From Olavius algarvensis Delta 4 endosymbiont (GTDB taxonomy: Bacteria > Desulfobacterota > Desulfobacteria > Desulfobacterales > CAJINA01), in the NCBI GenBank assembly GCA_905176665.1, contig CAJINA010000104.1:36699-100698 (forward strand): DNA of 64,000 nt. The letters run 5' to 3'. The notes under the pieces are model-generated. The model did no database searches. It was not told the origin of the DNA and was given only the letters and a program-made list of their open reading frames with translations. Within the stretch, counting starts at the first letter, position 1. Each line of letters starts with the position of its first letter. Positions 1-63,434 of the stretch are shown here, piece by piece. Made by a program: the position numbers and the translations under genes.

Positions 1-180
1 TACTGGCCTTGCGTTCCAGGGTGACTATTTTTGCAGTCTCATTGATACTCTGCATCGTCAGGTCGTTTATGCAGCTCTTTGAAACCTGTTCCTCAGGACC
101 AGGTTTTTAAAGAACTGAATAAATCAAAAGAAGGTACTTTCAATATCAAAGCAAAGTACTGCCTATACTGACTTTAACTC

Positions 181-2763
181 TCACTCTTTGGGGTATTTTT
201 CAGATTTCTCTATCCGACTTTGTATGTCACCAGCAGGTATTTCTAATGCAGAATTACTATCAATAGTTGAACGTATGTGAATATCGCGCTGTGGAAAGGC
301 GATCTCGATATTGCGTTCCTTGAAAAGGCGATCGATTTCAAAGCGCACGTCTGTTTCGACTTTGAGCATGTAGTCAACAGCGGTCCAAAAACGCAGCCTG
401 AATATCAGCGCGCTATTTCCGAAATCTGTGAACAGGACTTCGGGTGCCGGATGCTTCAAGACACGCTTTGTCTTCCCTGCTATCTCAAGCAGGGTTTCCC
501 GAACGAGTTCAATGTCCGAACCATAGGCAACCCCCACATCCACATTTCGTCGCAGGCGCCTGTCCTTAAAGCTCCAGTTTGTTACCTGGCGGCTGATAAA
601 CTCAGAATTAGGAATTATCAGGGAAGCGTTATCGTAGGATTGAACAACGGTGGAACGTACGTTGATTTTTTTTACGGTTGCCCAGGTACCATTGACTTCA
701 ACATCATCGCCCACCTGGATCGGTCGCTCGAAAAGCAGAATGATGCCGGAAATGAAATTATTGACTATGTTCTGAAGGCCAAAACCAATACCAATACCAA
801 GCCCGCCTAAAACCACGGCCATCGTTGCCATATTCAATCCAAACACGTGCATCGCAATGGTAATACCCAAAAACCAGATGCCATAGACGGTGATAGAGGT
901 TATCGAATCTTGCAGACCAATTTCCATGCCACTGCGATTCAGGAATTTATTTTGAAATACCCAGCGCCAAAGCCGGGTAATGCCGTGGGTCGCCAAAAGA
1001 ATCAATACAGAATAAATCAAACCCAGAAAACTGAACGTCATACTCCCGATTTTCAGTGGATATCCCAGAAACTCATAAATTTTAAACAAGACGGCTCGTT
1101 GGCCGCCCCAGGCAAGGATGAGAACAACCACCAGGGAAAGTGCACAGGCAAGTTGCCCGAAGCGAATCATGAGCCATTGCCAGGGATATTCGTCCTGCAG
1201 CAGTTCATTTTTTTGGCTGACGCTTTTCTCCCGGTAATAATGATCCCACTCCTGCAGCATCGTATAAAAACCGATCCAGCATAAAATCACGATAATGCTC
1301 CGGCCCCACGACACCAGCCAAAGAATTGCCAGGGGCCCATAGCCTACCAAATCCAAAATAAGGGCCGCCCCGCCAATCAGGTAACTGATTGCCTTAAGGG
1401 CGATAACCAGCGGTCGCCGGTTCTGATTTTCCCCAGGTTTGGATTTCAGACCAAAAGACATTCGGCGCCAGAAATTTAAAGCCCAGCCGATTAAAAATAA
1501 TTCAAAGGCGATTCTGATTAGCAGCAATAGGATTGAATCATTCCCCAGACTCCAGTTTGCAATGAGATAAATCCACCAGAAATATTGCACCAGGATTATC
1601 AAGCTCTTTAAGCGGGCTGATGTCTCATCCGACAGGGCCGGCCCCCAGTCCCAGGACTCAAGAAGCAACTTTAAAAAACGAGCACATATTAAAACCAACA
1701 ACAGTTTGGCCAAAAGTTGCAACGCGGCAGTAGATAAATATAAGACATCGAGATGTGAATAGATGTAAATAAGCACGGTAATCCCGGTAGTGAAAAACAA
1801 CGAATTTAACACTTGGACCGCCAGTTGGTGGCAGGGGCCCAATTTCTGTAAGATTACGTGCTCTGAAAGGCGGGTGATGCCCAGGGTCGCCCGTTTAAGC
1901 AAAATGATCAGCGCCCCGAGTAAAAAAAGAAAAGCAATCAGGACATTGCCGGAATTTTTCCAGAACCGCCGCAGGTCGGTTTGCCACTCGTGCGATCGTG
2001 TAAAAGCACCTATTTTCTTTGAAACCGAAGCCCACTCAGCTTCTAAAGCAGGCCTGGTTATATATGAAAACAGCCCCTGGCGGCGTTGAAAAAGATGCTG
2101 CTCATTAAGCTGTTCAAGCATGCCCTTAAATTTAACCGCCAGTTCAGAATACGCTTGATTAAGGTTGTTCAGCTGATCTAAACGCGACGCAATAATTGAA
2201 TTCAGCTGCAACAGCAATTTTTCTTTCTGGACCAGCAAATTAGATATTTCCCGGGTACGTGATTTGAGGCCCTCGACAACACTGGCCGGGGCGCTTATCT
2301 TCATCAGCTCACGCAGCTGTTTCTTATTTAAAGTCTTCTGCTGACCTATGTTTTCTATTGCCTGGGTGATGACATTCAAGCGCGGGGCATTTTCAGCAAC
2401 CATATCACGGACCTCATTGATTGAGGCCTGCAACTCCGTTTGCGCCTTTTGGACTGTAGCGATGGCAACACCCGAAGTCAGCAAAAGGCTCTCGTAGGTC
2501 GAAACCCTTAGCTGATAGCCATTTAGTGCTGCTGTAAAATAGAGCTTATCATGCTTTAGAAGGTTCAACTGCTCTTTAAAGCTCGCCACACTTGCTTTTT
2601 CTGCCGCTATGGACTCATCGACCGCCCGACCTAACTCTGCAAGATTCAGGGTCTGATCAGAGACAGGGGATTGCGCGTCTGCAGCATTTACCCCATATCC
2701 GCAAAGCCATGCAGCTGAGACCAGGATAAGTACCATATATGCAAAGACTTCTTTCTTGATCAT
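181..2763 (-). CDS. Mechanosensitive ion channel, MscS family (MscK/KefA-like, long N-terminal periplasmic coiled-coil domain plus multi-TM plus MscS core)
   Basis: 860-aa ORF; signal peptide; coiled-coil N-terminal half; about 10 TM helices; C-terminal MscS-type block GLQNIVNNFISGIILLFERPIQVGDDVEV...VRSTVV...IPNSEF typical of the MscS pore/beta-domain. Confidence 0.85.
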   Translation of the reverse strand: MIKKEVFAYMVLILVSAAWLCGYGVNAADAQSPVSDQTLNLAELGRAVDESIAAEKASVASFKEQLNLLKHDKLYFTAALNGYQLRVSTYESLLLTSGVAIATVQKAQTELQASINEVRDMVAENAPRLNVITQAIENIGQQKTLNKKQLRELMKISAPASVVEGLKSRTREISNLLVQKEKLLLQLNSIIASRLDQLNNLNQAYSELAVKFKGMLEQLNEQHLFQRRQGLFSYITRPALEAEWASVSKKIGAFTRSHEWQTDLRRFWKNSGNVLIAFLFLLGALIILLKRATLGITRLSEHVILQKLGPCHQLAVQVLNSLFFTTGITVLIYIYSHLDVLYLSTAALQLLAKLLLVLICARFLKLLLESWDWGPALSDETSARLKSLIILVQYFWWIYLIANWSLGNDSILLLLIRIAFELFLIGWALNFWRRMSFGLKSKPGENQNRRPLVIALKAISYLIGGAALILDLVGYGPLAILWLVSWGRSIIVILCWIGFYTMLQEWDHYYREKSVSQKNELLQDEYPWQWLMIRFGQLACALSLVVVLILAWGGQRAVLFKIYEFLGYPLKIGSMTFSFLGLIYSVLILLATHGITRLWRWVFQNKFLNRSGMEIGLQDSITSITVYGIWFLGITIAMHVFGLNMATMAVVLGGLGIGIGFGLQNIVNNFISGIILLFERPIQVGDDVEVNGTWATVKKINVRSTVVQSYDNASLIIPNSEFISRQVTNWSFKDRRLRRNVDVGVAYGSDIELVRETLLEIAGKTKRVLKHPAPEVLFTDFGNSALIFRLRFWTAVDYMLKVETDVRFEIDRLFKERNIEIAFPQRDIHIRSTIDSNSALEIPAGDIQSRIEKSEKYPKE

Positions 2764-2810
2764 GCCTATTGGCCTCTATACAAAATTGTCACTGATTAGA
2801 TTATCAGTAC

Positions 2811-3875
2811 CTAAAACCATTTCTTTTTCTTAAAATACAGTATCATGCCAGCTGCGATGGCTGCCATAGCAGACAGAGCAACAAAGTAACCGTGTTTCAT
2901 CTTCAGCTCAGGCATCCATTCAAAGTTCATCCCGTATATCCCGGCTATGAAAGTCAAGGGAATAAAGATGGTGGCCATAATGGTTAGCACCTGCATCACC
3001 TCGTTCATCCGGTTGCTGACGGTGGAAAGATACAGATCCTGCATACCTGAGAGGATATCTCGGAAAGAATCGATTGTGTCCGTCACCTGAATAAGATGAT
3101 CATATACATCTGAATAAAAGATCCCTGTGGACTCTTGAATTAGCGGGGATTCTGTCTTGATCAGCCGATTTACCATTTCTCGCATGGGCCAAACCTGCTT
3201 TCGAAACAAGATCATCTCGCGTTTTAGCTTGTGGATAGACTCAAGCCGGGAGGCACTCGGATTATCCATCAAATCTTGTTCAAAGCCTTCTATCTTTTCT
3301 CCCAAGCTTTCAAGGACTACAAAATAGTGATCCACGACAGCATCGATCAATGCATAGGCTAAATAACCAGCGCCCGCCGTGCGGATACGGCCTTTTCCTC
3401 TTTTGATCCGTTCACGGACAGGCTCAAATAGGTCACCCTCTGCTTCTTGAATGGAAATCACAAAACCGTCGCCCACAATCAGGCTGGTTTGCTCGGCTTT
3501 AACAACCCCGGCCTGCTGATCGAACACCAGCATTTTAAAGACCAGGTAAAGATAGTCTTCATAGTCATCGATTTTGGGGCGCTGTCGGGTGTTCACGATG
3601 TCTTCTAAGGTTAGTGGATGGATACCCACATCTTTGCCCAGCTGCCCTATGAATTCAACATCATGGATACCATTGACATTGTACCAGACAACCCCGACTT
3701 GCGTGCGAATCTGATTGAATTGCTCAGTCTCAACCGATTCGTTTTCTATCAGGTGACCCTCGTTATAGTGCGTAATTGAAGTGCTAGTCTGTTGAACCTT
3801 TTTTTCACCAACATGGATAAGGGCGCCGGGAGCGCCCCCAACCGGTTTGCGCGACTTTTTAAATAGTTTGGCCAT
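2811..3875 (-). CDS. corA: Magnesium/cobalt transporter CorA
   Basis: 354 aa; C-terminal two TM helices with canonical YGMNFEWMPEL (GMN motif) and a basic tail. Confidence 0.9.
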   Translation of the reverse strand: MAKLFKKSRKPVGGAPGALIHVGEKKVQQTSTSITHYNEGHLIENESVETEQFNQIRTQVGVVWYNVNGIHDVEFIGQLGKDVGIHPLTLEDIVNTRQRPKIDDYEDYLYLVFKMLVFDQQAGVVKAEQTSLIVGDGFVISIQEAEGDLFEPVRERIKRGKGRIRTAGAGYLAYALIDAVVDHYFVVLESLGEKIEGFEQDLMDNPSASRLESIHKLKREMILFRKQVWPMREMVNRLIKTESPLIQESTGIFYSDVYDHLIQVTDTIDSFRDILSGMQDLYLSTVSNRMNEVMQVLTIMATIFIPLTFIAGIYGMNFEWMPELKMKHGYFVALSAMAAIAAGMILYFKKKKWF

Positions 3876-4407
3876 TCGGTATTTGGTTATAATCTATAGA
3901 TTGCGATCTTGCTTTAGGTCTGAGCTTTTCGAATTGCGGTCACCTTGCCAGAAAACCAATATATCATACTTAGCAAAATGTTGTAACATGTGTAAATATG
4001 ACAGTTTTAAGAGAATTTAGGTATCAGGTTTCTTTAGAGAGGGATAGACGTGCATTCTGCTAAAGATATTTGCATAGAACTTTTTACATTTAGACAAGCT
4101 TTGTATATGCGGGCCGCCAATTAATGGGTAACTCCGTAACAATTCCGGATTTCATCGAATTGCTCGCTGCCGGGCTTACCAGCGCGGGATTGACCAAGTT
4201 TGAATGATTCCCTTCCGCATACGCTTCCTCCCATTTTTTTAGGACTGCGGCTCCCTGCCTGAAATAAACGCGGTAATACGCACTTGCCGCAACTGCGGCT
4301 TGCAATTACACCTGAGGTCCCATATTGAGGGGATGGTTTCTTCCAAATATTATGGTTTTATCAGAAAACTGGGCACGGAATCGAACTTGAAAGCATCGGG
4401 TACGAAA

Positions 4408-12640: not shown

Positions 12641-12754
12641 AGTTGCTCGCTATTAAACCCGGATAAACCGGTTTGATATTCCAGCTTGCATTCCATCACC
12701 AGTTTGGTACCCTTACTGCAATCACACTACTTCTCAAAAAGGGTACCCACCGGC

Positions 12755-13336
12755 ATGAAAGATGGCCCGCAAATAGATCCTGAGTCCTGGGTAGACCGCT
12801 ATGGTGACGCGCTATTTCATTTTGCTCTGGCGCGCGTCAAAGACAGAGAGATCGCTGAAGATCTTGTTCAGGAAACCTTCCTGGCGGCTGTCAAAGCCAA
12901 GGACCGCTTCAAAGGAAAATCCACGGAAAAGACTTGGTTGTTCGGTATCCTGAAGCACAAAGTGATCGATCACTACCGCAAGAAAAGGTCAGTCATTTAT
13001 GAACAGGACCTCAGTAAGGGAACCGAAGACCTGGATGCTTTTTTTAACGCCAAAGGCGCCTGGTCAACCATGCCGGAAAACTGGCGCTTGAATCCCGGCA
13101 AATCCCAGGAGGTCAGAGAGTTTATTGATCATTTCTACCAGTGCCTGGCCGACTTGCCCAAGAAAACAGCTGAGGTATTCGCCTTTCGGGAAATCGACGG
13201 GCTGAGTACCAAGGAAATATGTAAGCGCCTGAACATCACCGCCAGCAATTGTCGGGTGATTTTGTACCGGGCTAGAATGCTGTTGCGTAAATGCCTCGAG
13301 TTGGCCGGTCTTGGGCCAAGCGGGGCTGCAGAATAA
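12755..13336 (+). CDS. RNA polymerase ECF-type sigma-70 factor
   Basis: Region 2 (DLVQETFLAAVKA...) and region 4 HTH (STKEICKRLNITASNCRVILYRARMLLRK). Confidence 0.85.
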   Translation: MKDGPQIDPESWVDRYGDALFHFALARVKDREIAEDLVQETFLAAVKAKDRFKGKSTEKTWLFGILKHKVIDHYRKKRSVIYEQDLSKGTEDLDAFFNAKGAWSTMPENWRLNPGKSQEVREFIDHFYQCLADLPKKTAEVFAFREIDGLSTKEICKRLNITASNCRVILYRARMLLRKCLELAGLGPSGAAE

Positions 13337-13365
13337 GGGTAAACCTTGTTTTAGGATAGAAGAAA

Positions 13366-13632
13366 ATGATGAACCATTGGATGTTTCGATGCAAAGACAT
13401 TTCCCGGAAGGTATCACTGGGTATGGATGCCGGGCTGCCCTTCCATGAGCGCCTGGCGGTTGAGTTTCGCCTGGTGATGTGCCGCTATTGTGCCCGCTAT
13501 CGCAAACAGCTGCGACAGCTGCGCGAAATAAGCGGCCAGATCGACACCGATCTTCCCGGATGTGAACCCTCAGAACTCCTGTCCGAAGAGTGTAAAGACC
13601 GTATCAAAGAAGCGCTGCGAAGCTATCAGTAA
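13366..13632 (+). CDS. Anti-sigma factor, zinc-finger (zf-HC2/RsrA-ChrR-like), cytoplasmic
   Basis: Immediately downstream of the ECF sigma gene. H-x3-C-x2-C motif (HERLAVEFRLVMCRYCARY), 88 aa. Confidence 0.7.
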   Translation: MMNHWMFRCKDISRKVSLGMDAGLPFHERLAVEFRLVMCRYCARYRKQLRQLREISGQIDTDLPGCEPSELLSEECKDRIKEALRSYQ

Positions 13633-13801: not shown

Positions 13802-14452
13802 ATGAAAACCAAACTAAAAAGAAAATGGATCTTGTTCGTGATCCTGTTTGCCTTCGCAGGCCTGCTGCTGGTGTCCCAGTCATCCGGGACGGCCGCCCTG
13901 AAAGAAGGTGAAAAAACATATATTGTCGATCAAACCGGCGAGCGCTGGAACATCACCCAGGCGGTATCCCTGGGGTTCAATCCGCGCTATTTTGAATTCG
14001 GCATCGGGCGCAATGCGTTCACGCCCCTGGGGGAGGACAACTGGCAGGAAAGCCCGGTGGACGAATATTCCCAGATGCGGGTTATCGGCATAACCGGCAA
14101 CGGTGAGGCCCACGCCTATTCCATAGCGAAACTCTGGTCACACGAAACCGCCAATACCCATTTGGGTTCCCAGCCGATCGTCGCCGGCTACTGACCGCTT
14201 GTCAATCTGGCGGCTGTGTACAGCCGCGAAATCGATGGACAGGCGCTCACGCTGGCGCCCTCGGGGTGGACCTATCGGCGCACGTTTGTGCTCTATGACA
14301 AGGAAACCGGCACGCTCTGGTATCCGGATAGGGGCAGCCTGATGGGCATCCAGGGCAAGCATTTCAAGCGGCGGCTGCCCATGTTGGAGTCGACCGACAC
14401 CAAGTTCAATAAATGGGTAAAGGAGAATCCAGCGACCAAGTTGATGAAGTAG
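13802..14452 (+). CDS. DUF3179-family secreted protein, predicted selenoprotein (in-frame UGA at 14192-14194 read as Sec)
   Basis: ORFs 13769-14194 and 14216-14452 are in the same frame, separated only by TGA. Joined translation ...VIGITGNGEAHAY...SQPIVAGY-U-PLVNLAAVYSREIDGQALTLAPSG...VLYDKETGTLW matches the DUF3179 core (…AVTYCPLC…DGxxLTF…YDRETxSLW) with Sec at the first Cys of YCPLC. Stem-loop 15 nt downstream of the UGA. Confidence 0.7.
14207..14228 (+). other. SECIS-like stem-loop downstream of the DUF3179 UGA
   Basis: ggcggctg-tgta-cagccgc: 7-bp stem, 4-nt G/U-containing loop, starting 15 nt 3' of the UGA. Confidence 0.5.
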
Positions 14453-14603
14453 AAAAGCGGGCCAGGAATTTTGAGCGGCCGGTTGCCAGGCGGATGTACC
14501 ACCGGTTACCGGCCAGAGTAAAGCATCCTGGCCCAGAGGGCCAGGCTTTGAGGTACCCCTAAAAGGAGCCTCCCCATCAAAACAAGATGACAAAACTATG
14601 CAT

Positions 14604-14761
14604 CGCGCTGAGGCGCAGAGTCGCAGAGAAAGGCAAGAACAGATTTTCGTCGCGCTATCGCGCGAAAACCGTTTCAGGTTTCAGACTCAATGGCCCTTCT
14701 GGTTTTAACCGGCGAAGCCGGATATATGCATGGGTTCTCTGCGTCTCTGCGCCTCTGCGCG
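14604..14761. repeat. 26-nt inverted repeat pair flanking about 105 nt in a convergent intergenic region
   Basis: cgcgctgaggcgcagagtcgcagaga (14604-14629) versus the reverse complement of tctctgcgtctctgcgcctctgcgcg (14736-14761), 24/26 match. Additional terminator-like hairpin cctggccc-aga-gggccagg at about 14507-14527. Confidence 0.55.
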
Positions 14762-14852
14762 AGAATCCTGTTTTACGGTATAGCCATAGACTCTGACCTG
14801 ATTACGAAGACCAGGTTTTAAAGGCAAAATATCGGCTTTTTTGTTTGGGGGC

Positions 14853-15731
14853 CTACCCCGGCGCCTGCTCCTGCTTCCGGTCAACTTTATTGATCAGTAC
14901 GCCGACCTGTTGGGTCAACAAATCCACTTTCCTGTTCAGATCGGTAATCGCGCCTGATCCGCATTGGTCCTCGTCCTCATTCTCGGATTGACACTCTGCC
15001 ATAACCTGGTCATAGTTATTGACCACGGCGCCGACCACAAGGTTAATCAGCAGGAAGGCCGACAGCCCCAGCCATGAGACATGGTAGGCTGTGATCAGCC
15101 AGTCCGTTGCCCCAACGACCTGCCCGCCAAGCATGTTGTACCTCAGATCCGTCCAGTCCTCGCCGGTCATAATCCGAAAGAGGGTAAAAAAGGATTCGGT
15201 GATCGTCCCGTATGGATCGGGGCTGGTCGGTCCCATAGCCGGCCCGTTGGCGGCCACCGGCCCTCCTTTGAAGAGTATGACCCCGATGATGGCGTACATG
15301 TACATGAATATGAACAGCAGGATGAAGGTGTAACCGAGGGATTTGAGTGACCTCAGCAGCACACTAACAATGATTTTCAGTTCCGGAAGCGTCTTGACAA
15401 GCCGCAGGATCCGGAAAACACGCATGATCCGGAAAACGCTTAAGGCGGCGCTGTTTTCAAAAAGCGAATCGGGGATATAGGAAATACTCACGATCACAAT
15501 ATCGAACAGGTTCCAACCATCCGAAAAATAGGCCTTGATGGAGGTCCGGCCGATAAAACGCAAGGCGATCTCGAGTGTAAAGATGCCGAGTATAACCCTT
15601 TGCGTATACCCGATCAGCGTGCTGGTATAATAGGTCTCAATCCCGATTAAGGTGGCATTGATCACAATGATCAGGTTTATCCAGAGAGCAAAGGCAAGCG
15701 AGTTGACCATATAATGAATTTTTCCGCGCAT
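14853..15731 (-). CDS. Bacterial voltage-gated cation channel (BacNav/NaChBac family), single 6-TM domain
   Basis: S4 with Arg every third residue (VFRIMRVFRILRLVK). Pore region ESFFTLFRIMTGEDWTD aligns to the NaChBac FxTLFQVMTLESWS selectivity-filter region. Confidence 0.85.
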   Translation of the reverse strand: MRGKIHYMVNSLAFALWINLIIVINATLIGIETYYTSTLIGYTQRVILGIFTLEIALRFIGRTSIKAYFSDGWNLFDIVIVSISYIPDSLFENSAALSVFRIMRVFRILRLVKTLPELKIIVSVLLRSLKSLGYTFILLFIFMYMYAIIGVILFKGGPVAANGPAMGPTSPDPYGTITESFFTLFRIMTGEDWTDLRYNMLGGQVVGATDWLITAYHVSWLGLSAFLLINLVVGAVVNNYDQVMAECQSENEDEDQCGSGAITDLNRKVDLLTQQVGVLINKVDRKQEQAPG

Positions 15732-16280
15732 CTTCTCAATCCTCTTATATCTGGTTCGGCCCTAAGCGGGGTGACCCAAGGCGTTCTATATAACGACAGC
15801 CAGTTTGGTCGGATAAGAACGTGCAGGTACCCATTTAGAAACCAAACGCAGAAACTGATTTTTATCAGAAAATGTTATATTGTGTATTGAATGCAACCTG
15901 TCCGAATACCGACTCCGCGGGAGCCTGCACCGGTAAGCTGATAGAAAAGGCCATTTGCCGAAATGGACAGGTCTAAACAGATAGAATATTAGGAGGACCT
16001 ACTGTCTTGTCAAATCCTGGGTTGGAATGATGCTGCCTGCTCCGCCGGTTAACCGCATTATGAAACGAAGCCAGGGCCGCTAGCGGGTGCTTCTCTTCTA
16101 TATGGCCAACCAGTGTCGCGCTGTTGCTATAGCGCTTTGCGCAAATTCCTGTGATTTTCGGCTTTTAATCAACGCGCCGATAGTCCGAGTATTCTTTGTA
16201 GGGTTTCAACACCGATATTGAACGCTTCCCGCAGCAAGCGGCGGGGAATGCGCGTGGTGATCGGTTCAGGACAGCAGGTT

Positions 16281-51880: not shown

Positions 51881-52990
51881 TCAAGGTTCCCCTCGCCGCT
51901 TTTTAACCATCCAATAAGGCGCCTGGCTGTCTCTACTCAAGATCAATTCAGCCACCTTTAAAAATCCATTTTCCCTGGCATACATCAGGGCGGTTTTGCG
52001 TTTGTAGCATTCGGCGTTTACATTTGCACCGTTATCCAGCGGCAGCCGGACAATCCCTAAGTGACCGTGTTTCGCGGCTAGAATCAATGGTGTCCGGCCA
52101 CTTGCGTTGGTGGGTTCGATATGAGCCCCTTTCTTTAATAGTGTTTGGACAACATGGGTACGGCCCCAGGTCGCGGCAGCGCCGATTGGGGTAACGCCGT
52201 TTTCGTTAGATTTATTTAACTTGGCACCCGCCGATATAAGTGTGAGCACCACGTCCAGATGCCCCCTCTGGGCCGCAAGTATCAGCGCAGTCGAATCATT
52301 ACCTTTTTCACGTTTGTGAACATCCGCGCCTTTCTCGATCAAAAGGATCACAATTTTGATACGGCCGGAATAGGACGCCGCTATAAGGGGCGTAAAACCG
52401 ATAGTTCCACCGTTGGAATTAATGGGAACACCATCGGCCAACAGTTTTGAGACCTGATCGATATCACCTTTTCTCGCCGCATTCACCAGCTGATCGCTGG
52501 GGCTGGGACGATACTTTGTAATCACCGGGTTCAGCCGCTTGCGCAGTAAAAATACCAAAAACCCCATCACGGCACCTGCAAACATCCTCGGTGGCGTCGC
52601 CCGGATATGTTTTGTGATGTCAGCCCAGAATGGATTCTCCCAGAGGATGATCAGAGCCGCTATACCGGCAACCACCGCCCCAAGCCCAATAGCCCCTATG
52701 CCGACCATCCCATCGGGGGCCTGGGGGCCCTCAAGGTCTAAAGCTGAATATAGAATGCCCAGCACCATTCTACCCAGGGGATTATTATATGATGCCAGTC
52801 CACCCAAAATCATGCCCAGGAGGGTTGGCGCAATCAGCCAGAAGCGCGTGTAATGAAGGGCCGCACCCAAAAATGCTCCCAACATCGCACCAGCCGAAGC
52901 ATAGGTGAACGCTATCAGAATCTTTTCGAAGCCATCTTCAGATTTTGATCCGCGTCCGCCCGAATTGGAAAATTGATGGTTCGCCTTCAT
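51881..52990 (-). CDS. Ankyrin-repeat protein with N-terminal multi-TM region
   Basis: About 5 ANK repeats (TALILAAQRGHLDVVLTLISAGAKLN, TPLILAAKHGHLGIVRL..., TALMYARENGF...) after 4-5 hydrophobic helices. Confidence 0.8.
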   Translation of the reverse strand: MKANHQFSNSGGRGSKSEDGFEKILIAFTYASAGAMLGAFLGAALHYTRFWLIAPTLLGMILGGLASYNNPLGRMVLGILYSALDLEGPQAPDGMVGIGAIGLGAVVAGIAALIILWENPFWADITKHIRATPPRMFAGAVMGFLVFLLRKRLNPVITKYRPSPSDQLVNAARKGDIDQVSKLLADGVPINSNGGTIGFTPLIAASYSGRIKIVILLIEKGADVHKREKGNDSTALILAAQRGHLDVVLTLISAGAKLNKSNENGVTPIGAAATWGRTHVVQTLLKKGAHIEPTNASGRTPLILAAKHGHLGIVRLPLDNGANVNAECYKRKTALMYARENGFLKVAELILSRDSQAPYWMVKKRRGEP

Positions 52991-53224
52991 TTGACTTACT
53001 CAAAGTCGGCTAAGAAAATAGTGAGTATCTATTATAGAATTTGTTCTACCTTTTGTCATCCAGTAACGCAGTCCCTGAGTTATACATATCATTGTGGGCC
53101 ATCATCATCGCTAAATAACTCCTTCGATATTCATATATGAAAGGCCTAACTCATTAAATATATTAGTTTTGTCCAATTTTCACGGACCTAAACTGCCTCA
53201 ATGGAGATACAGTTTTTGGGGGGA

Positions 53225-53303
53225 GAAGGTAGCGACGGGAGTCGAACCGGCTACCCTTTTTGAAATCATTGAAGATATTGATATGGCCACGGTACATTCG
53301 CAG
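53225..53303 (-). repeat. tmRNA/tRNA 3'-end-like fragment, variant sharing island-side sequence with copy at 62933 (copy 2)
   Basis: ggtagcgacgggagtcgaaccggctaccc then tttttgaaatcattgaagatattg...gtacattcgcag, the same downstream block as 62965-63012. Confidence 0.55.
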
Positions 53304-53696
53304 AACCGGACACGCTTTATTCATAAAAAGTTTACAGAAAATCCAAATCTTTAGCAGATATCGTGACCGGCAAGAGTAATCGAACACTTGATTATTTGTT
53401 GCCTAAACGACAATTTGAGTTCCTAAATAACTTTCTGACTGGTCGATTATTTGACAAATTAGGCACTTATAGTATATAGTGCCGGTTATGAATATTTTCG
53501 GAGTCGACTTCACATCATCTGACTTTGTGCTGCTGGGGATATGCGGCGGAATTGTAATCTTCCTAATTGCCAACCGCATAGTCGGTGCACGGAAAAAAGG
53601 GGAGAATTAGGATCCCTGCCAAGAATTCTGTTTCACCAGTATTCATAAGGCAGGAGACGCCTCTTTCCAATCTTCAAGCCTCTCCATCTTAAAATT

Positions 53697-53728
53697 GGAG
53701 TGAAGGTTCGATTCCTTCACGGCCCACC
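53697..53728 (+). repeat. Plus-strand tRNA 3'-half fragment (T-arm plus acceptor plus CCA) without a 5' half
   Basis: GAAGG-TTCGATT-CCTTC perfect T-arm, then ACGGCCC-A-CCA. No complementary GGGCCGT acceptor 5' strand within 100 nt upstream. Confidence 0.5.
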
Positions 53729-53939
53729 ACTCTACTATTTGTAATTACAACATAAAGAATTGAAACGCCCTGCCAACACGGTGCCAACAGGTGCCAACAA
53801 ATGGTGGGTTTTTTTATGAAGAAAGGCCTGTGAAGTTGAATCCTAATAGGCCAGATATTCAATGCATATCTCAGGGTGGGGTAACCTGTAACTTAGCGAA
53901 TAGATGCGTAACGCTCGATCCCGCGAGCCAGGCAAGATA

Positions 53940-55289
53940 TTAAGAATCTTCAAAACACCAGGCCGTCATCTCAACGCCTAATTCTTTGACCCGGGCGTTG
54001 ACTTCTTTTAGCACGGCATCAAAGGATGATTCACTGACAAACTCATTCTCGATGCTGAATTTATTCGTGCCGTCTTTCAATATCTTTTGTAGATCTGTTT
54101 GCGGCAGCCTGGATACCCGGTCGCGTAATTGGCTTTGCAGGAGGTGCTCCAGGCGTCGACTAACGAGTTGGGGTTGACTGGCTGTGGTCCGCAGGTAAGT
54201 GTCGGCGTTCACGACATGCCAGGAGGCGGCATACTTTATTGAGACGTTGCCCTTATCGATAGTAAAGAATTTTCCGTTTCCTTCTAGTTTGTAGAATTTC
54301 TCCTCTGAAACCCGTTTGGTTTGCTCAAAAAATGGAATTTTAATATTGAAACCGGATTTGGATTGAACCCGATCGGGTTTTCCAAACCTGGATATAATGA
54401 CTTGTTGTCCGGGCTCAACTTTATACACCGCATCAAATGCCATCGCCAGGCCGATACCAGCTGCCAGGATTAAAACCGCAGGCCACAGAAATCGTGAACC
54501 CAGAATTTGATTCGAAATAGATTTAAGGCTCGCTTTTCCCTGCACCCGCCGGCCCGTCAATTCTGCATATGAAAGGGCGAGAATGGACAGGTACCATAAG
54601 ATAAAATAAGTTTCCAGGATGCCTGCCAGAAGTTTTATCAAGGTCTGGTTCACGTACATCTCGAAAGCTATACTAATAGAGCCGTTGATCAATCCCGGAA
54701 TAAGTACAAGCAGTATAAGAAGTTTGAACCCGCTGCCCTTTGACAGGTTCCATATACGCCTGGGGGTGACGTCGTGCCTGGCCGAAATGGCCGGAAGTGC
54801 CAAGGCAAAGCGAACCACGGGGTATGCCGCTGCGCCCACCACCAAAACCCAAATCAAGACGGATCCAGATGCCAACCAGGGTTTCGGGCTGTTGATTGCC
54901 ATGGAAAACCAGACAATTGCAGGAAGGACCAAATACAAAAGCAGTCCCAGAAATAGTGCCAGGAACAGACACAGTAACACCAACACCAGTAAAAAGAGGC
55001 CATACCGGCGCCACATCCCGGGTTCGGATTCGTGTCCTGAAGGGCCGATCACCAAGTGGCGCTGATATTCCAAACCAAACCAGGCGATTGATGTCCATAC
55101 GGGAAGCTGGGCAAACAATTGAAAGGTAGCGTTTAGCTTGAAATAGCTGGCTGTTAACAGCACAGCGATAGAGACAGCCAGAGCAAATCCTGGCCTCAAA
55201 AGTGCCTGCCATGATGTTGCGCTCAAACTGAATGGTGCAATAAGTGCTCTGGCTAAAATCGACCATATGCTCAATTGAGGAGTAGTCAC
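53940..55289 (-). CDS. Polytopic membrane protein with C-terminal SPFH/band-7 (HflC/K-like) domain
   Basis: About 8 TM helices then VEPGQQVIISRFGK...GFNIKIPFFEQ SPFH-like core. Confidence 0.55.
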   Translation of the reverse strand: MTTPQLSIWSILARALIAPFSLSATSWQALLRPGFALAVSIAVLLTASYFKLNATFQLFAQLPVWTSIAWFGLEYQRHLVIGPSGHESEPGMWRRYGLFLLVLVLLCLFLALFLGLLLYLVLPAIVWFSMAINSPKPWLASGSVLIWVLVVGAAAYPVVRFALALPAISARHDVTPRRIWNLSKGSGFKLLILLVLIPGLINGSISIAFEMYVNQTLIKLLAGILETYFILWYLSILALSYAELTGRRVQGKASLKSISNQILGSRFLWPAVLILAAGIGLAMAFDAVYKVEPGQQVIISRFGKPDRVQSKSGFNIKIPFFEQTKRVSEEKFYKLEGNGKFFTIDKGNVSIKYAASWHVVNADTYLRTTASQPQLVSRRLEHLLQSQLRDRVSRLPQTDLQKILKDGTNKFSIENEFVSESSFDAVLKEVNARVKELGVEMTAWCFEDS

Positions 55290-55630
55290 TGAACGATAGC
55301 CCCCTGAGAGTATAGGATGATCATTACATTTACCTTAGATCATAAGATAATTCCAGATCCCTTGCAAGAATCCTCGCATAAGGGCTCCAGTGTGTTTAAC
55401 TCTCAATCAATATGAGATCCGGCCGAACCTTTAGGTGCAATTGAGTGTGGTTTTGACGTGACTATTGGATGGAGGGTTTTTGCTAGCGTCTTTGTTGAAA
55501 TGCGTACAGCGAGAACCGGTATGTTTGGTGTTTGTAAGGTGCATATTTAGGCAAAAAATAAAATTCCGATAATTGCGCTAAAGTCCATACTGGAGAAAAT
55601 ACCACGTTTGATTAACGTAACTTTTGAAGT

Positions 55631-55665
55631 TGATGACGGCGGCGGGGTTCGAACCCGAGGTAGCC
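55631..55665 (-). repeat. Degraded tmRNA/tRNA 3'-end-like fragment (copy 3); a second T-arm-like remnant lies at about 55753-55775
   Basis: gacggcggcggggttcgaacccgaggtagcc versus gaggcggcgggagtcgaacccgcagcctacc. ggggatttgaacc at 55755. Confidence 0.4.
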
Positions 55666-56012
55666 TATAGAGGATAAGGGTTTTCTGTGGCACACCACCA
55701 CATAGATACCACCAATAGAATATCAAAGGGAAGATTAGTAATAGATGTGAAAAAGATAGCACGGGGATTTGAACCTATACCTCCGTATTCCCTTGGTTTG
55801 CTGAAAGGGCTCTGTTTCAGACCTACCTGTCTGCTTTGATTGCAAAACCTTATAATAAAAAAATGATGTAAAAACTATGGGTTATATGTTATGTTTTTCA
55901 AGAACATTACCGTCAGCAACATCGGTAACATTTGCTTGGCCGAGTACGTTGGTTTCGAATACGATACATTTACAATCTTCAGGTGTATAACTAAAGCTGG
56001 TCTTAGAATCAT

Positions 56013-56276
56013 ATGATAAGTTTTCTCTTTATAACCGGGATCGTACTAATATTTATAATTATCCTGGTGCTATTATGGCTTAAAATGGAAAAAGTGTATG
56101 ATTCGCAAATTAATATCGAGAATATCGATAGTTTTTACTTTTTTCTCTTTGGCATTAGCAAGGATGTCTACGACAAAGAAACTTGGATAAAAAACCAAAA
56201 ACGATACTTAATTAAATTAGCGATATTTACAGCATGTATCACCATGTCAGGAACATTATTGATATTGTTTATTTGA
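56013..56276 (+). CDS. Small hydrophobic hypothetical protein inside a low-GC islet
   Basis: 87-aa ORF, two TM, codon usage very A/T-rich relative to surrounding genes. Confidence 0.25.
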   Translation: MISFLFITGIVLIFIIILVLLWLKMEKVYDSQINIENIDSFYFFLFGISKDVYDKETWIKNQKRYLIKLAIFTACITMSGTLLILFI

Positions 56277-56462
56277 GACAATCAAGCAGTATTGGCAATT
56301 TGTTAATACCGGTATAACAGATACGAAAAATTTCTATCAGGGTTACTGTATTTGTGATATCTCCCGCCATTGCAAATTACGGTGAATTCTTGCCGGGAGT
56401 TAAGGCCAAGATTAGGAAGGTACTTACTGTTCTTACATAATTACGGGAGTATGATTTTATAA

Positions 56463-56849
56463 GTGAAAATTCTATTGATTGAGGATGTTCGGGTAGAAAG
56501 AAGGAAAATAAAAAGATGGCTGGAAAGGTTTGGATACGAGGTCATCGAGGCTTCCAATGGCATTGAAGGGCTCAAACTCTATCATGACCATGCACCGGAC
56601 CTGGTAATATCAGACATCGTGATGCCCGAGAGTGAAGGTATCCAATTGATAACTGATCTCAAAACCGCTGACCCCCACGCGACGATATTCGCTATGTCGG
56701 GTGCCGGCAGAGAGCGAGGCGAATACCTTTCCCTGGCAGAGGGCATCGGCGCTGTCCGTTCGTTTGTCAAACCGATCGATAAGAATGCACTCTTGAAGGC
56801 AATTAAGGAGTTTTTTCCAGATAAGCCGTTATTGGATGAACAAGATTAG
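56463..56849 (+). CDS. Single-domain response regulator (CheY-like), GTG start
   Basis: ILLIEDVRVERRKI...DLVISDIVMPESEG...K receiver motifs. Confidence 0.8.
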   Translation: MKILLIEDVRVERRKIKRWLERFGYEVIEASNGIEGLKLYHDHAPDLVISDIVMPESEGIQLITDLKTADPHATIFAMSGAGRERGEYLSLAEGIGAVRSFVKPIDKNALLKAIKEFFPDKPLLDEQD

Positions 56850-58084
56850 ATCTTCTTTGTGCCATCGCTTTCGAGAGTGTATGCCGGAAGCCGTACCGTA
56901 AATGTGGTACCCTTTCCACGTTCCGACCGAACTTGCACCTCTCCATTGTAAGCAGCGACCATAGACCGCACACTGGCAAGCCCCAGCCCCGTGCCTTTGT
57001 CCCTGGGTTTTGTACTAAAATCAGGTTTAAATATTTTCTCAAAATTGTCACTTTCGATCCCCTCACCGGTATCTTCAATCTCGATAATAACCCCCCCTTC
57101 GCTGCTGCGGGTCTTGATCCTGAGAAATTTTAGCGGGGTTGCTTCCATGGCATCAATGGCATTTTTTATAAGATTGTCAAAAATCTGTTTGAGTTGAATA
57201 TAATTGCCATGGACAGGTAAAAGGTCTTTCTGGAGATCCAGCTTCTTTTCTATTTCATTTTTAAAAGTTGCGTTAAGATTGAAGAACTCCATTTCGTCAT
57301 CTATAATTTCATTGATATCCACTGGCTCCGGTTGATAGAGAGCACGGTTTTTTGAATGCGCGAGCACTGAATCAATAATCTTCTCAAGTTTATCGGCACC
57401 GCTAAGCAGCACGCTATGCATTCTGTTCAACAAGTCTTCATCCGGAGGGCTGGGCTCCAAAGCAATTTGAGAGATGTGCAAAGCACCAAATATAGCTTGC
57501 AAGGGATTGTTCAGATTGTGCACAAGCTGCGCGGCGTATTTTCCAATCTCCGCCTGATTATACAAATCCAACACCTGGTTTGTGCGATATTGAACAGTCT
57601 TGTGAAGCTGGCGGTTGGCTTGTTCCAATTCCATCAAAATTCGCTGTCTATCTTGCTGGATAATGGACATCTCCAAAGACTGACGTACCACAATTTTGAG
57701 CTCATCTGTCTTGTAGGGTTTCAAAACGTAGCGATAAACTGACCCCCTATTGATTGCATCAAGCAGAGAATCGGTATCGCTGGCGCTCGACACGATCACA
57801 CGCAAGACCTCCGGCTTTTTTTCTTTGAGCCGCTCCAGCAGTTCAAGCCCATCCATCACAGGCATCATTAGATCAGTCACGACAACATCGATTTTTTCAG
57901 AATCAAGTATTTCAATGGCCTGGGCACCATTTTCAGTGAATATTGCCTGGTACGGTTCCGCGGCCACTGTCTTTCTGATTTTGGCCAACGTAATGCGATC
58001 ATCTTCGACAAAGAGGACTTTTCGATTTTTCATTAACTTACCGTTTTTTATAGAGTTTATAACTGGGCAGAGACCAACAAGCAA
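56846..58084 (-). CDS. Response-regulator/histidine-kinase hybrid (N-terminal REC, HisKA, HATPase_c)
   Basis: N-terminal KVLFVEDDRITLAK...DVVVTDLMMPVMDG. H-box AQLVHNLNNPLQAI. G-boxes DTGEGI / GTGLGL. Confidence 0.85.
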   Translation of the reverse strand: MLVGLCPVINSIKNGKLMKNRKVLFVEDDRITLAKIRKTVAAEPYQAIFTENGAQAIEILDSEKIDVVVTDLMMPVMDGLELLERLKEKKPEVLRVIVSSASDTDSLLDAINRGSVYRYVLKPYKTDELKIVVRQSLEMSIIQQDRQRILMELEQANRQLHKTVQYRTNQVLDLYNQAEIGKYAAQLVHNLNNPLQAIFGALHISQIALEPSPPDEDLLNRMHSVLLSGADKLEKIIDSVLAHSKNRALYQPEPVDINEIIDDEMEFFNLNATFKNEIEKKLDLQKDLLPVHGNYIQLKQIFDNLIKNAIDAMEATPLKFLRIKTRSSEGGVIIEIEDTGEGIESDNFEKIFKPDFSTKPRDKGTGLGLASVRSMVAAYNGEVQVRSERGKGTTFTVRLPAYTLESDGTKKI

Positions 58085-58223
58085 TCATCCTGAAAGATTG
58101 GAATCCGAATGAAAGACCATGAACTTATCGAGGCGATAGAAATGAATAAAAAATGAGTGCACAGGTGACACAGGTGAATCCAATATCTATCCACGCCCAA
58201 TACCCAGTATCAGTCGGAGCCAC

Positions 58224-58925
58224 TTAAAGCGTCCCCGGTTGACTGATAGCCTCATCCTTAATACGAATGGCATCGAAAAGTATAGCCTTTAGTCCACCTT
58301 TGAGTTTTTTTTCGGTTATTGCGCATTCGTCTTGAATGGAAATTGTGACGTGGTCCCAGGCCAATATTTCATAGGCCGATTCAATACCTTGGCGGTCGTT
58401 GATCCGCGCATCCATAAAATCCCCATTGTGGAAGAATAGGACGCCCTGTTTTTGGGTATCTCTGTTGACAACTCTTACGGTGCAGGTTTTATGATCCATC
58501 TCGATAAGTTGAATGAACATTTCCATCGAAACGGTCTGGAGAGTACCGCCTTCGTTTTCTTTCTTCAACATTTGTAGAATTTGGTCCGCCAGTTCCTCCA
58601 CAACGAAGGGTTTTTCTAAATAAGCTATCGCACCGGTGTCCATGACCCTCTTTTCGGACGTCGGACTCCCGTACGCGGTCAAGATAACTACCTGAATATC
58701 GGGATATTTATCTGAAATTTCGGATAGTAAAGCATAGCCGTCCATTCTCGGCATCTGAAGGTCTGTAACAACTATGGAAATGTGATTTTCCTTTAAAATC
58801 TGCTGGGCTTCTATCCCATCTGCTGCCAGGAATGTAGTAACTATCTCTGAATAAGGCTTGAGTTTCTTGCTGACCAAGTTCCTCAAGACTCTATCATCAT
58901 CGACAAATAGGATTTTTTTGTTCAC
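58224..58925 (-). CDS. Response regulator: REC plus DUF4388-like output domain
   Basis: KILFVDDDRVLRN...IVVTDLQMPRMDG receiver. C-terminal GTLQTVSMEMFIQLIE...GVLFFHNGDFMDAR...ESAYEILAWDHVT resembles DUF4388. Confidence 0.65.
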   Translation of the reverse strand: MNKKILFVDDDRVLRNLVSKKLKPYSEIVTTFLAADGIEAQQILKENHISIVVTDLQMPRMDGYALLSEISDKYPDIQVVILTAYGSPTSEKRVMDTGAIAYLEKPFVVEELADQILQMLKKENEGGTLQTVSMEMFIQLIEMDHKTCTVRVVNRDTQKQGVLFFHNGDFMDARINDRQGIESAYEILAWDHVTISIQDECAITEKKLKGGLKAILFDAIRIKDEAISQPGTL

Positions 58926-59429
58926 GCGAGCTCCTAAAAGTGATGAAACAAGTATACAATTACCTTTTACCGGTTTTCAAATCATCATGGATTAATTTAG
59001 TATTTACAAAGCAATCATTGTGCCACTTCATACAGAACACACAAAAATCCCCGGCAGGCGGTTGTTCCCTCAGTTTCTAACGGGAAATTTGTTTTAAATG
59101 AAATTCAGTGGATACTTACCAAATAGCTTCCACCTTTTTTATCTCAGCAAGACCAGGATAACTGTCGGTCAGACAATACGGCAACCATGGAAAGAGATTC
59201 CAAAGTTCTAACATTTTACCCGGTATGTCGCCTGTTGACATAATATCTGATTGCGGGCATAAAAGTTCCTACCGGTGACTGCAGCGCGATATTCGGAGCG
59301 CGGAATCCGGTCCACTAAATATCGGGGTCAATCCTGCTACGTCGCATACTGTGAAGTTTATCTTTTTCCGTTCCTGAAAAACGAATTCTTAAAACCCGCA
59401 AGCGATTCCAACGGACAGGTGGTGTCGCG

Positions 59430-60272
59430 ATGAGTCAAAGAAACTATATTTGGATGCTTGGGTGGAAGCTCCTGTTGCTTCCCGCCTCTGCGGATGCCTG
59501 CTCCATGTGCGTGACCGCCTCTGCCGACAAGATTCTGCCGCCTGTTGAGACTTGGGCGCTTTGGCTGACTATACTTTTTTTGCTGATATCTCTAATCGGT
59601 TCAATAACCGGAGAGAGATTAAGCGGTATTCCCTCCTTCCTGAGGGCGTTTATAGTTATTAGCGTGCTGCTTTTGGCCGGTGCCGGATTCCTTGGGATCT
59701 GGTTTATGGTGGTCCTTGCCCTTCCATTGATGATTTTTTGTGCCGGTGTCCTCAGGACACACCTGCGCTCGCAAGAGCGTCGCTTCCATGTGTTGAAGGT
59801 GTCGCTGGCCTTTGTGGTTATCGCTGTTTTTATAGGGCTTGGCGGATTAACCGCCCATGTGCATCTGACTCGCACACCCGCAGAATACGCAATCAAGTGG
59901 GCGCATACGGCTCCGGGTCGGCTGACCATGGAAGCCTTGAAAGGAGAGGGGCGGTCGGCATTGCCGCAGTTTCGCCGGATTGCGGCGGAGATAGAACCAC
60001 GCAGGTCGGGGGTGGCCAGCGACGTCATCGCGCGCTACGGCGATCCTGAACGGGATGTGCCGCTTCTCATCGACGTGCTAAGACGCGACGGGGGAGAATC
60101 GCTCGCCTCGCGAGATATCGAAGCCGCATTGACCCGACTCACCGGTCTCACACTGCCGCCCGGCTCAAATTATGTCCAATGGAGTAACGCCTGGAAAAAG
60201 AGCGGAAATCCTTTCAAACTGGAAGAATCGCTACCTGACACAAGGTCGCCGGGACCGGTAGGATTAAAATGA
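59430..60272 (+). CDS. Hypothetical polytopic membrane protein
   Basis: 280-aa ORF, 4-5 TM helices, Arg/Asp-rich C-terminal soluble domain, no motif recognised. Confidence 0.45.
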   Translation: MSQRNYIWMLGWKLLLLPASADACSMCVTASADKILPPVETWALWLTILFLLISLIGSITGERLSGIPSFLRAFIVISVLLLAGAGFLGIWFMVVLALPLMIFCAGVLRTHLRSQERRFHVLKVSLAFVVIAVFIGLGGLTAHVHLTRTPAEYAIKWAHTAPGRLTMEALKGEGRSALPQFRRIAAEIEPRRSGVASDVIARYGDPERDVPLLIDVLRRDGGESLASRDIEAALTRLTGLTLPPGSNYVQWSNAWKKSGNPFKLEESLPDTRSPGPVGLK

Positions 60273-60278
60273 AAAAAA

Positions 60279-60380
60279 GTGCGGTGGCGGCGGTGAAGGC
60301 GCGCTGGCGTACCACTCGTATTTTCCGAGCAACATTATATAGTTAAATTTTATAGTGGGACACCTCCGGGACACACAAGT
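60279..60380 (-). repeat. Degraded tmRNA/tRNA 3'-end-like fragment plus GGGACACC-N4-GGACACAC motif (copy 4)
   Basis: gtgcggtggcggcggtgaaggcgcgc followed by ...tagttaaattttatagtgggacacctccgggacacaca. Confidence 0.5.
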
Positions 60381-60477
60381 AAGATTTGGACCTAACCCCA
60401 CCGAATCACAAGAATTTTATACTACTCGTAGAACCCCACCGCCAACCGCATGTTCGAGTCGATTCAGGTAAATTGAT

Positions 60478-63432: not shown

Positions 63433-63434
63433 AA

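Follow-up and report, generated by a model that had tools for sequence, protein, structure and literature searches.

To our knowledge, one native prokaryotic Ca2+ channel, CavMr from Meiothermus ruber, and one Ca2+-blocked relative, NavPp from Plesiocystis pacifica (AnclNav group), have been characterised to date. Both are single-domain channels. CavMr lies outside the canonical BacNavs and possesses a filter (TLEGWVD) which copies that of a eukaryotic Cav repeat, namely repeat I of Cav3.1/3.2. Its high Ca2+ selectivity depends on the Gly residue at position 4 of the filter, and the replacement of this residue by Asp (G4D) lowers PCa/PNa to 7.7. Transfer of the NavPp filter (TLEDWTD) into the CavMr scaffold (CavMr-Pp) results in a PCa/PNa of 13.8, and CavMr-Pp, together with several filter mutants, loses the discrimination between monovalent cations. 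Native NavPp prefers Na+ (PCa/PNa 0.31), and external Ca2+ blocks its current (Shimomura et al. 2020, eLife 9:e52828); the block is retained when the channel is refitted with TLEDWSD or TLEDWAD (Shimomura et al. 2020). In the same study, two relatives of NavPp with TFEDWTD filters yielded no current. Since one and the same filter gives opposite preferences in the NavPp and CavMr scaffolds, the outcome depends on the scaffold; according to Shimomura et al., the number of charges alone is insufficient for selectivity.

Among the canonical BacNavs, acidic filters have been introduced by engineering, e.g., in CavAb (TLDDWSD, TLEDWSD) and in the NaChBac mutants TLEDWAD and TLDDWAD. An earlier note on the locus described below had invoked such additions of Asp as converting Na+ to Ca2+ selectivity, in agreement with NaChBac TLEDWAD and NavAb TLEDWSD as cited in Shimomura et al. 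(2020). The rule that more Asp residues lead to Ca2+ selectivity applies to NaChBac, to NavAb and to the scaffold of CavMr but fails in NavPp. According to the so-called "beacon" rule, an Asp residue at the HFS+1 position characterizes channels that are either Ca2+-selective or strongly Ca2+-blocked. A different change, the replacement of Leu by Gly at position 2 of the NavAb filter (L176G), abolishes about half of the current at 40 mM Ca2+ with a low Ca2+ permeability, and the corresponding crystals contain an extra water-filled cavity beneath the filter, in which Ca2+ density accumulates (Irie et al. 2023, Nat Commun 14:4236).

The window analysed here, i.e., the whole stretch of 64,000 nucleotides, contains an intact gene that encodes a channel protein of this superfamily. 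The ORF (292 amino acids plus stop) starts with an ATG, and the N-termini of homologs align from the same Met residue. The protein matches the Pfam model Ion_trans over residues 13-243 (E = 4.6e-47), whereas the NCBIfam models give no match to it, leaving the channel devoid of a curated subfamily. The gene and the signals located upstream are as follows:

14853..15731, minus strand: complete channel gene (ORF, Ion_trans match, AF2 BacNav fold, dN/dS)
15740..15746, minus strand: Shine-Dalgarno sequence AAGAGGA, 8 nt upstream of the ATG, read from the sequence
15986..16013, minus strand: weak sigma-70-like promoter candidate, TTGACA-16 nt-TAATAT, about 255 nt upstream of the ATG

The promoter candidate results from a consensus scan and matches 10 of 12 positions, the scan having returned five sites where 2.1 were expected. 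Compared to an 86%-identical relative, the channel gene shows a dN/dS of 0.16 and is under purifying selection. An identical protein is recorded in approximately 100 blocks of the metagenome collection, and the nearest named relative occurs in Desulfococcaceae bacterium HSG8 (66% identity). A search of the 64,000-nt window for a second Ion_trans gene or a paralog found none. An Rfam scan of the 549-bp upstream region and of the downstream region for a riboswitch or another known RNA gave no match at E <= 1.

The channel gene is monocistronic. It is preceded by 549 bp of non-coding DNA, beyond which lies a gene for a hybrid histidine kinase/response regulator, and it is followed, in convergent orientation, by the two ORFs of a split DUF3179 gene and by an ECF sigma/anti-sigma pair. 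The hybrid histidine kinase was considered as an operon partner and rejected, as it is missing in the 86%-identical relative. Across 80 loci, the search for conserved operon partners found none conserved beyond the family level, so that the genomic context gives no clue to the physiological role. Nine Bacteroidota loci share a small membrane protein and an SPFH-like gene upstream of the channel gene.

The three-dimensional model was built with AF2 on an alignment of 24 sequences of the clade, with a mean pLDDT of 85.5. It consists of the helices S1 (residues 12-34), S2 (38-61), S3 (65-84) and S4 (94-114), a S4-S5 linker continuous with S5 (116-154), a turret of low pLDDT (155-176), the pore helices P1 (177-188) and P2 (193-202), and S6, which continues as a single long helix (210-289). 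The S1-S4 voltage sensor and the S5-P-S6 pore thus lie within one polypeptide of 292 residues, the arrangement that defines the BacNav superfamily (about 250-300 aa). Foldseek matched the model to NavMs, NavAb, NaChBac and CavAb, with a target-normalised TM of about 0.8 for NavAb and NaChBac, and the best single-domain sequence matches in the PDB are NaChBac, NavCt, NavRh, NavMs and NavAb. The identification of a BacNav homolog with an acidic filter, put forward in the earlier note, is therefore borne out by the Ion_trans match, the PDB matches, the AF2 model and Foldseek. The features of the protein distribute along the gene as follows:

15390..15698, minus strand: voltage-sensor domain S1-S4 (residues 12-114; AF2 helices, NavAb alignment)
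15390..15452, minus strand: S4 helix (residues 94-114) with the gating charges R101, R104, R107, R110 and K113 (NavAb alignment)
15270..15368, minus strand: S5 pore-lining outer helix (residues ~122-154; AF2 helix 116-154)
15204..15269, minus strand: extended S5-P1 turret (residues 155-176), ending in PDPYG (171-175) (alignment; low pLDDT)
15168..15203, minus strand: P1 pore helix (residues 177-188, ITESFFTLFRIM; AF2 helix), with F182 and R186 invariant in the clade
15147..15167, minus strand: selectivity filter T189-G190-E191-D192-W193-T194-D195, aligned to NavAb 175-181
15126..15155, minus strand: P2 helix (residues 193-202, WTDLRYNMLG; AF2 helix 193-202, alignment)
15003..15104, minus strand: S6 inner helix and gate (residues ~210-243), with the NNY motif (AF2, alignment)
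14874..14948, minus strand: C-terminal amphipathic helix (residues 262-286, ITDLNRKVDLLTQQVGVLINKVDRK; AF2 and alignment)

In the voltage sensor, residues E32, Q44, F51, E54, R58, D77 and V81 align to E32, N49, F56, E59, R63, D80 and V84 of NavAb. According to this alignment, E32 and Q44 occupy the positions of the extracellular negative cluster, E54 and D77 those of the intracellular negative cluster, and F51 and V81 those of the hydrophobic constriction; most of the functional residues of the voltage sensor are invariant across the clade. The S4 arginines R101, R104, R107 and R110 correspond to R99, R102, R105 and R108 of NavAb (R1-R4), R104 and R110 being invariant in the clade, with a conservation of at least 90% for R101 and R107. 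An 18-nt direct repeat (15396-15431) reflects the RxxRxx coding periodicity of S4. On the pore side, N230 (equivalent to N211 of NavAb), G234 and N239 of S6 are invariant in the clade. Residues 262-286 align with the segments that form the coiled coils in NaChBac and NavAb, and the C-terminal helix is predicted to form a putative four-helix coiled coil located after an acidic neck, as expected for a BacNav; this helix is missing from many members of the clade and is not clade-defining.

Residues 179-195, which read ESFFTLFRIMTGEDWTD, contain the T-x-[E/D]-x-W filter usual for BacNavs, located between P1 and P2. In the MAFFT alignment, T189, G190, E191, D192, W193 and T194 correspond to T175, L176, E177, S178, W179 and S180 of NavAb, with the P1 helix and the filter in register. 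The earlier note had aligned the same region with NaChBac; the register stands, but the LESWSM quoted as the NaChBac filter belongs to NavAb, NaChBac reading TLESWAS. Residues E191, D192 and D195 bring 12 carboxylates into the filter of a tetramer. Relative to canonical BacNavs, the P2 helix lacks one residue, a trait shared with the AnclNavs and with repeat II of eukaryotic Cavs, and the S5-P1 turret exceeds those of NavAb, NaChBac, NavPp and CavMr by 12 residues. The PDPYG motif ending the turret is clade-specific, with an invariant P173 and a conservation of at least 90% at D172 and G175.

The filter is shared by a large set of homologs, hereafter the TG clade. A word-seeded search found TGEDWTD in 113 of its 120 top homologs, the identities reaching down to 42% and the sources being Desulfobacterota, Methylococcales, SAR324, Bacteroidota, Elusimicrobiota, Campylobacterota and Alphaproteobacteria. 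The clade is also represented in gut Bacteroidales and Akkermansia, with Prevotella, Alistipes and Muribaculaceae among the gut commensal members. As a check on the word-seeded search, 1.84 billion representatives were scanned exhaustively with phmmer. The output was dominated by four-repeat eukaryotic channels and left 18 single-domain representatives near the query, which confirms the motif and is poorly suited to counting: 15 of the 18 possess T-G-[E/D]-D-W-T-D or a one-residue variant, and the other three are two proteins with degenerate filters (P0229 and P0267) and a 189-residue fragment stopping before the filter. When one genome per GTDB species was scanned, 332 loci were confirmed, so that at least 332 species genomes carry a channel of the clade; cultured hosts among them are Elusimicrobium posterum, Succinimonas amylolytica DSM 2873, Dysgonomonas and Flavobacterium sp. 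PL11. In the best 80 of these 332 loci, the filter reads TGEDWTD (58 loci), TGDDWTD (15), TGDDWSD (6) or SGDDWTD (1), and all six TGDDWSD loci belong to Akkermansia. Identity to the window protein ranges from 40 to 99% within the clade, in which G190, at filter position 2, is invariant. In all likelihood, the clade is defined by a signature consisting of the filter T-G-[E/D]-D-W-[T/S]-D, the PDPYG turret and the WTDLRY segment of P2. The Gly residue before the Glu, regarded as unusual in the earlier note, is unusual with respect to the characterised BacNavs, but it is invariant in its own clade and the usual residue in repeat II of the eukaryotic Cav1 and Cav2 channels.

In the searchable literature, no publication was found with GEDWTD, and TGEDW appears there solely for eukaryotic Cav repeat II. 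The sequence set of Shimomura et al. (2020) contains no member of the clade and no GEDWTD, and a 2026 screen of 50 BacNav orthologues had a TLESW-type filter as its entry requirement. The type of channel is already known, and what is new is a widespread, uncharacterised clade with a distinctive, invariant filter, which joins two features each experimentally shown to change the handling of divalent cations. Several proteins of the clade are annotated by JGI as "voltage-gated sodium channel", a label that is unwarranted without evidence.

The position of the clade was examined with respect to the Bacillus, NavAb-like and AnclNav groups of Shimomura et al. (2020) and to six human Cav repeats. A bootstrapped NJ tree computed from 215 aligned columns recovers the TG clade as monophyletic (93% bootstrap), with none of the references inside. 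The window protein shares 26-34% identity with every reference. Profile-profile comparison by hhalign scores the TG clade at 431 against AnclNav, 347 against the NavAb-like group and 336 against the Bacillus group, while the three known groups score 495-505 with one another (505 for the canonical pair). Owing to these lower scores, to the low identities and to the 93% monophyly, the TG clade is best described as a fourth group, apparently more divergent than the three described ones are from each other, with AnclNav as the nearest; this deep branching rests on NJ and hhalign. In the NJ tree, the clade lies outside the NavAb-like and Bacillus groups and excludes all 15 AnclNav references, the bipartition uniting it with AnclNav reaching 3.5% and AnclNav itself not being recovered as monophyletic (5%). 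The earlier note had held that clustering of the filter with known Na+-selective homologs would speak against its prediction; the protein groups with no characterised channel, and the point stands neither confirmed nor contradicted.

Neither the canonical filter TLESW[AS][SM] nor the additional P2 residue of canonical BacNavs (WSMGIV/WASGVM) occurs in the channel. The AnclNav filter T-[L/F]-E-[D/G]-W-x-[D/E/Q], with a bulky residue at position 2, does not cover Gly190, but the short AnclNav P2 (W-x-D-V-x-Y) is found again, WT-DLRY aligning with WT-DVMY of NavPp, and the TG clade and AnclNav have in common the TLFR motif of P1 and the P2 shorter by one residue. The Gly at position 4 distinguishing CavMr-type filters is replaced by Asp192. 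The acidic residues of CavAb-type filters are present (E191, D192, D195), but with a Gly at position 2 and on a non-canonical scaffold. The single repeat of 292 residues separates the channel from the four-repeat eukaryotic Cavs. A special likeness to eukaryotic Cavs was considered and rejected, since the top PDB scores add up the contributions of four repeats, at about 77 bits per repeat. Queries with NavPp and NaChBac give the same ranking with eukaryotic Cavs first, and Cav3.2 scores 300 bits with NaChBac versus 241 bits with the window protein. The hhalign scores to eukaryotic Cav repeats are 276 for AnclNav, 254 for the TG clade, 241 for the NavAb-like and 223 for the Bacillus group, so that the TG clade is no closer to these repeats than the AnclNavs are; the bipartition uniting the TG clade and eukaryotic repeats has a support of 44.5% in the NJ tree.

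Compared one by one, the described channels resemble the window protein in different respects. NavPp, likewise a native single-domain channel, has a filter identical at six of seven positions, the same 12 carboxylates per tetramer, a P2 of the form W-T-D-[VL]-x-Y and the TLFR segment in P1. It differs by the Leu at position 2, by an overall identity of 31%, by its phylogenetic group, by a long Cys-containing loop after P2 in place of the short Gly-rich one, and by the lack of the PDPYG turret. CavMr (33% identity) copies repeat I of a Cav3, whereas the filter of the window protein corresponds to repeat II of Cav1/Cav2, with Asp instead of the Gly at position 4 that determines Ca2+ selectivity, and with Gly at position 2. 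The double mutant NavAb N49K/L176G (PDB codes 8HA1 and 8HA2; TM 0.81 to the model) possesses the same exchange of Leu for Gly at position 2 but is otherwise canonical (TGESWSM), devoid of Asp at positions 4 and 7. The engineered Ca2+-selective channels derived from NavAb and NaChBac share the Asp residues at positions 4 and 7 and the carboxylate at position 3, but they are artificial mutants built on canonical scaffolds with Leu at position 2, and their filters confer no Ca2+ selectivity once placed in NavPp. Repeat II of eukaryotic Cav1/Cav2 exhibits the same T-G-E-D-W, a longer S5-P1 turret and a P2 of the form W-x-x-[VM]-M-Y, but it belongs to a protein of 24 transmembrane segments built from four non-identical repeats, and the identity per repeat is only about 26-27%. 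NaChBac (Bacillus halodurans) is the closest solved structure by sequence (33% identity, 110 bits) and shares the six transmembrane helices, the four S4 arginines, the S6 motif NLxxGxxVNN and the C-terminal coiled coil, while differing in its filter, in a P2 longer by one residue and in its short turret.

Taken together, the product of the gene is in all likelihood a subunit of the BacNav superfamily, four identical copies of which would assemble into a cation channel activated by depolarisation, and a member of a distinct deep clade; we infer tetramerisation and gating from homology. Upon depolarisation, S4, with its four Arg and one Lys, would move outward past the charge-transfer centre formed by F51, E54 and D77 and pull on the S4-S5 linker, which would open the S6 bundle. 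The four E191 side chains would form the high-field-strength ring, with the four D192 one position above it, at the "beacon" position, and the four D195 as an outer ring. Residue G190 would replace the Leu that packs under the filter and thereby create a water-filled space where the filter meets the central cavity, similar to that seen in the NavAb L176G crystals. Tight binding of divalent cations by the filter is very probable, a retention suggested by the structures and currents of NavAb L176G. External Ca2+ would therefore enter the filter, permeate measurably and suppress the monovalent current. The phenotype we favour, with a probability of roughly 0.4, is that of a Ca2+-permeable channel with a moderate preference for Ca2+ (PCa/PNa > 1, probably in the tens rather than in the hundreds), the Na+ current of which would be blocked by Ca2+. 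The preference is suggested by the Ca2+ selectivity of E-D...D filters in NaChBac TLEDWAD and NavAb TLEDWSD, by the PCa/PNa values of TLEDWTD in the CavMr scaffold and of CavMr G4D, by the "beacon" rule, and by the identity of TGEDW to the repeat-II filter of Cav1/Cav2. Conversely, the preference of NavPp for Na+, the absence of current in its two TFEDWTD relatives, the low PCa of NavAb L176G and the occurrence of Asp192 at the place of the position-4 Gly argue against it, as does the scaffold dependence of the outcome, the present scaffold being unlike any of those tested. All these lines point to strong binding of divalent cations by a pore of this type, and they diverge as to whether conduction or block results.

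The same data bear on other readings of the filter. As the main alternative, only slightly less probable, the channel would behave like NavPp and conduct mainly Na+ (PCa/PNa < 1), with millimolar external Ca2+ or Mg2+ blocking the pore and shifting the gating. Divalent cations would then be trapped, instead of passed, by the acidic filter together with the cavity at Gly190. The single residue separating the filter from that of NavPp, the persistent block of the T6S and T6A variants of NavPp, the partial divalent block with low PCa gained by NavAb L176G and the rank of AnclNav as the nearest known group in the profile comparison all point in this direction. However, the protein stands outside the NavPp lineage, at 31% identity, the very TLEDWTD filter prefers Ca2+ 13.8-fold once in the CavMr scaffold, and repeats II and IV of eukaryotic Cavs conduct Ca2+ in spite of a Gly at position 2. 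At the opposite end, a highly Ca2+-selective native prokaryotic Cav (PCa/PNa > 100), comparable to CavMr or to the engineered CavAb and thus the strong version of what the earlier note predicted, seems improbable: the 12 carboxylates per tetramer equal those of CavAb, TGEDW is identical to repeat II of Cav1/Cav2 with the "beacon" rule applying, and the TGDDWSD filter of Akkermansia reproduces the TLDDWSD of CavAb except for L2G, but CavMr needs its position-4 Gly, the swap to Asp reducing PCa/PNa to 7.7, NavPp has the same charge pattern and is not Ca2+-selective, and Shimomura et al. concluded that the number of charges is insufficient. The prediction of the earlier note, a Ca2+-selective or non-selective variant, is plausible and in part supported. 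The Asp rule on which it relied breaks down in NavPp, and the Leu-to-Gly change led to a partial block in NavAb.

There is but a slim chance that the channel is non-selective in the manner of NsvBa or EukCatA, letting Na+, K+ and Ca2+ through with no strong divalent block. A position-2 Gly may relax the geometry of the filter, and CavMr-Pp and several filter mutants do lose monovalent discrimination; yet the strict invariance of the filter across phyla argues for fine tuning rather than looseness, and all the tested filters with Asp at position 4 show either Ca2+ preference or Ca2+ block. That the gene gives no functional plasma-membrane channel, either as a decaying gene or as a subunit requiring another partner, is highly improbable. 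Two of the four AnclNavs tested in Sf9 cells were indeed silent, and the clade members P0229 and P0267 have degenerate filters, but the ORF is intact and preceded by a good ribosome-binding site, the dN/dS is 0.16, all gating and filter residues are conserved, the identical protein recurs in the approximately 100 metagenome blocks, and no conserved partner gene accompanies the channel across the 80 loci.

With respect to the family as a whole, it is on balance unlikely, though worth considering, that the TGEDWTD clade consists of native bacterial voltage-gated Ca2+ channels with a repeat-II-type (E-D) filter. If this were true, both filter types of the asymmetric eukaryotic Cav pore, the repeat-I/III type (E-G) being represented by CavMr, would have pre-existed as separate prokaryotic homotetramers, and voltage-gated Ca2+ entry would be common in bacteria, including the abundant gut inhabitants Akkermansia, the natural TGDDWSD of which nearly equals the engineered CavAb, Prevotella, Alistipes and Muribaculaceae. 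The spread of the clade over gut and marine bacteria raises the question of the purpose that voltage-gated cation entry serves in such organisms. With hundreds of orthologues sharing an invariant filter, the natural variants TGEDWTD, TGDDWTD and TGDDWSD, and a Gly residue placed where a divalent-holding cavity has been seen in a structure, the clade offers natural material on how a homotetrameric E-D filter conducts Ca2+ or becomes blocked by it, and a simple homotetrameric model for the repeat-II filter of animal Cav1/Cav2.

The vicinity of the channel gene, which encodes the 292-residue BacNav-superfamily subunit with the TGEDWTD filter, comprises the following features in the window:

12686-13632, plus strand: gene of an ECF sigma factor (216 aa) and, behind it, a Cys-rich ORF of 88 aa
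13769-14194 and 14216-14452, plus strand: DUF3179 homolog in two ORFs, which match separate parts of the Pfam model
14603-14762: inverted repeat (hairpin) in the stretch that separates the channel gene from the DUF3179 gene, which is convergent with it
15396-15431, minus strand: tandem direct repeat of 18 nt (78% identity) inside the coding region of S4, the voltage-sensor helix

The 88-aa Cys-rich ORF resembles a zf-HC2 anti-sigma factor, and the pair that it forms with the ECF sigma factor is conserved near the channel gene, but this is confined to close relatives. Since the same two-ORF gene calls for DUF3179 recur in identical and 86%-identical relatives, the split corresponds either to a conserved frameshift or pseudogene, or to a short two-gene form. 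The inverted repeat (28 nt, 93% complementary, with 104 nt separating the arms) is predicted to fold into a long hairpin of -79 kcal/mol (z = -5.9) and occurs as a single copy across the 64-kb window. A stretch of about 300 bp enclosing this hairpin is missing from L083, the 86%-identical relative. Possible explanations of the hairpin are an insertion specific to this lineage, a MITE-like element and a bidirectional terminator. The direct repeat inside the S4 coding region is the DNA trace of the RxxRxx periodicity of the gating charges rather than an element in its own right. With respect to base composition, the G+C content amounts to 0.43-0.47 at the window ends (1-4000 and 52000-64000) versus about 0.52 in the middle, which could reflect islands or a differing gene content.

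Another gene neighbourhood occurs in nine Bacteroidota loci (L006, L016, L025, L039, L040, L053, L060, L074 and L077), where the channel gene has, 20-72 bp upstream, a co-oriented gene whose product is a conserved membrane protein (about 115 aa). At most of these loci, two further genes precede the latter, one for an SPFH/'virion-core'-like protein (about 455 aa) and one for a Zn-ribbon protein (about 248 aa), an arrangement that may represent a lineage-specific operon.

Several members of the TG clade, the channel gene's own clade, are labelled 'voltage-gated sodium channel' by JGI and 'ion transporter' by NCBI; within this clade, the Na+ specificity that the JGI label implies is putative. 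Two proteins from the representative search, P0229 and P0267, are nested within the clade and possess degenerate filters (TLGYEWWQ and TTDMGFAE), which suggests that pore function has been lost or altered. Among P0121-P0269 from the representative library, the four-repeat channels usually display the repeat motif TGEDWN, but a few, presumably eukaryotic, possess instead the full TGEDWTD (three channels) or SGEDWTD (one channel) in one repeat.

Within the TG clade, the Akkermansia MAG loci L030, L051, L064, L069, L072 and L075 exhibit the filter TGDDWSD, which differs only by the replacement of Leu2 by Gly from the TLDDWSD of CavAb, the engineered, highly Ca2+-selective derivative of NavAb. These proteins are candidates for naturally occurring Ca2+ channels of bacteria, in this case of a major gut commensal.
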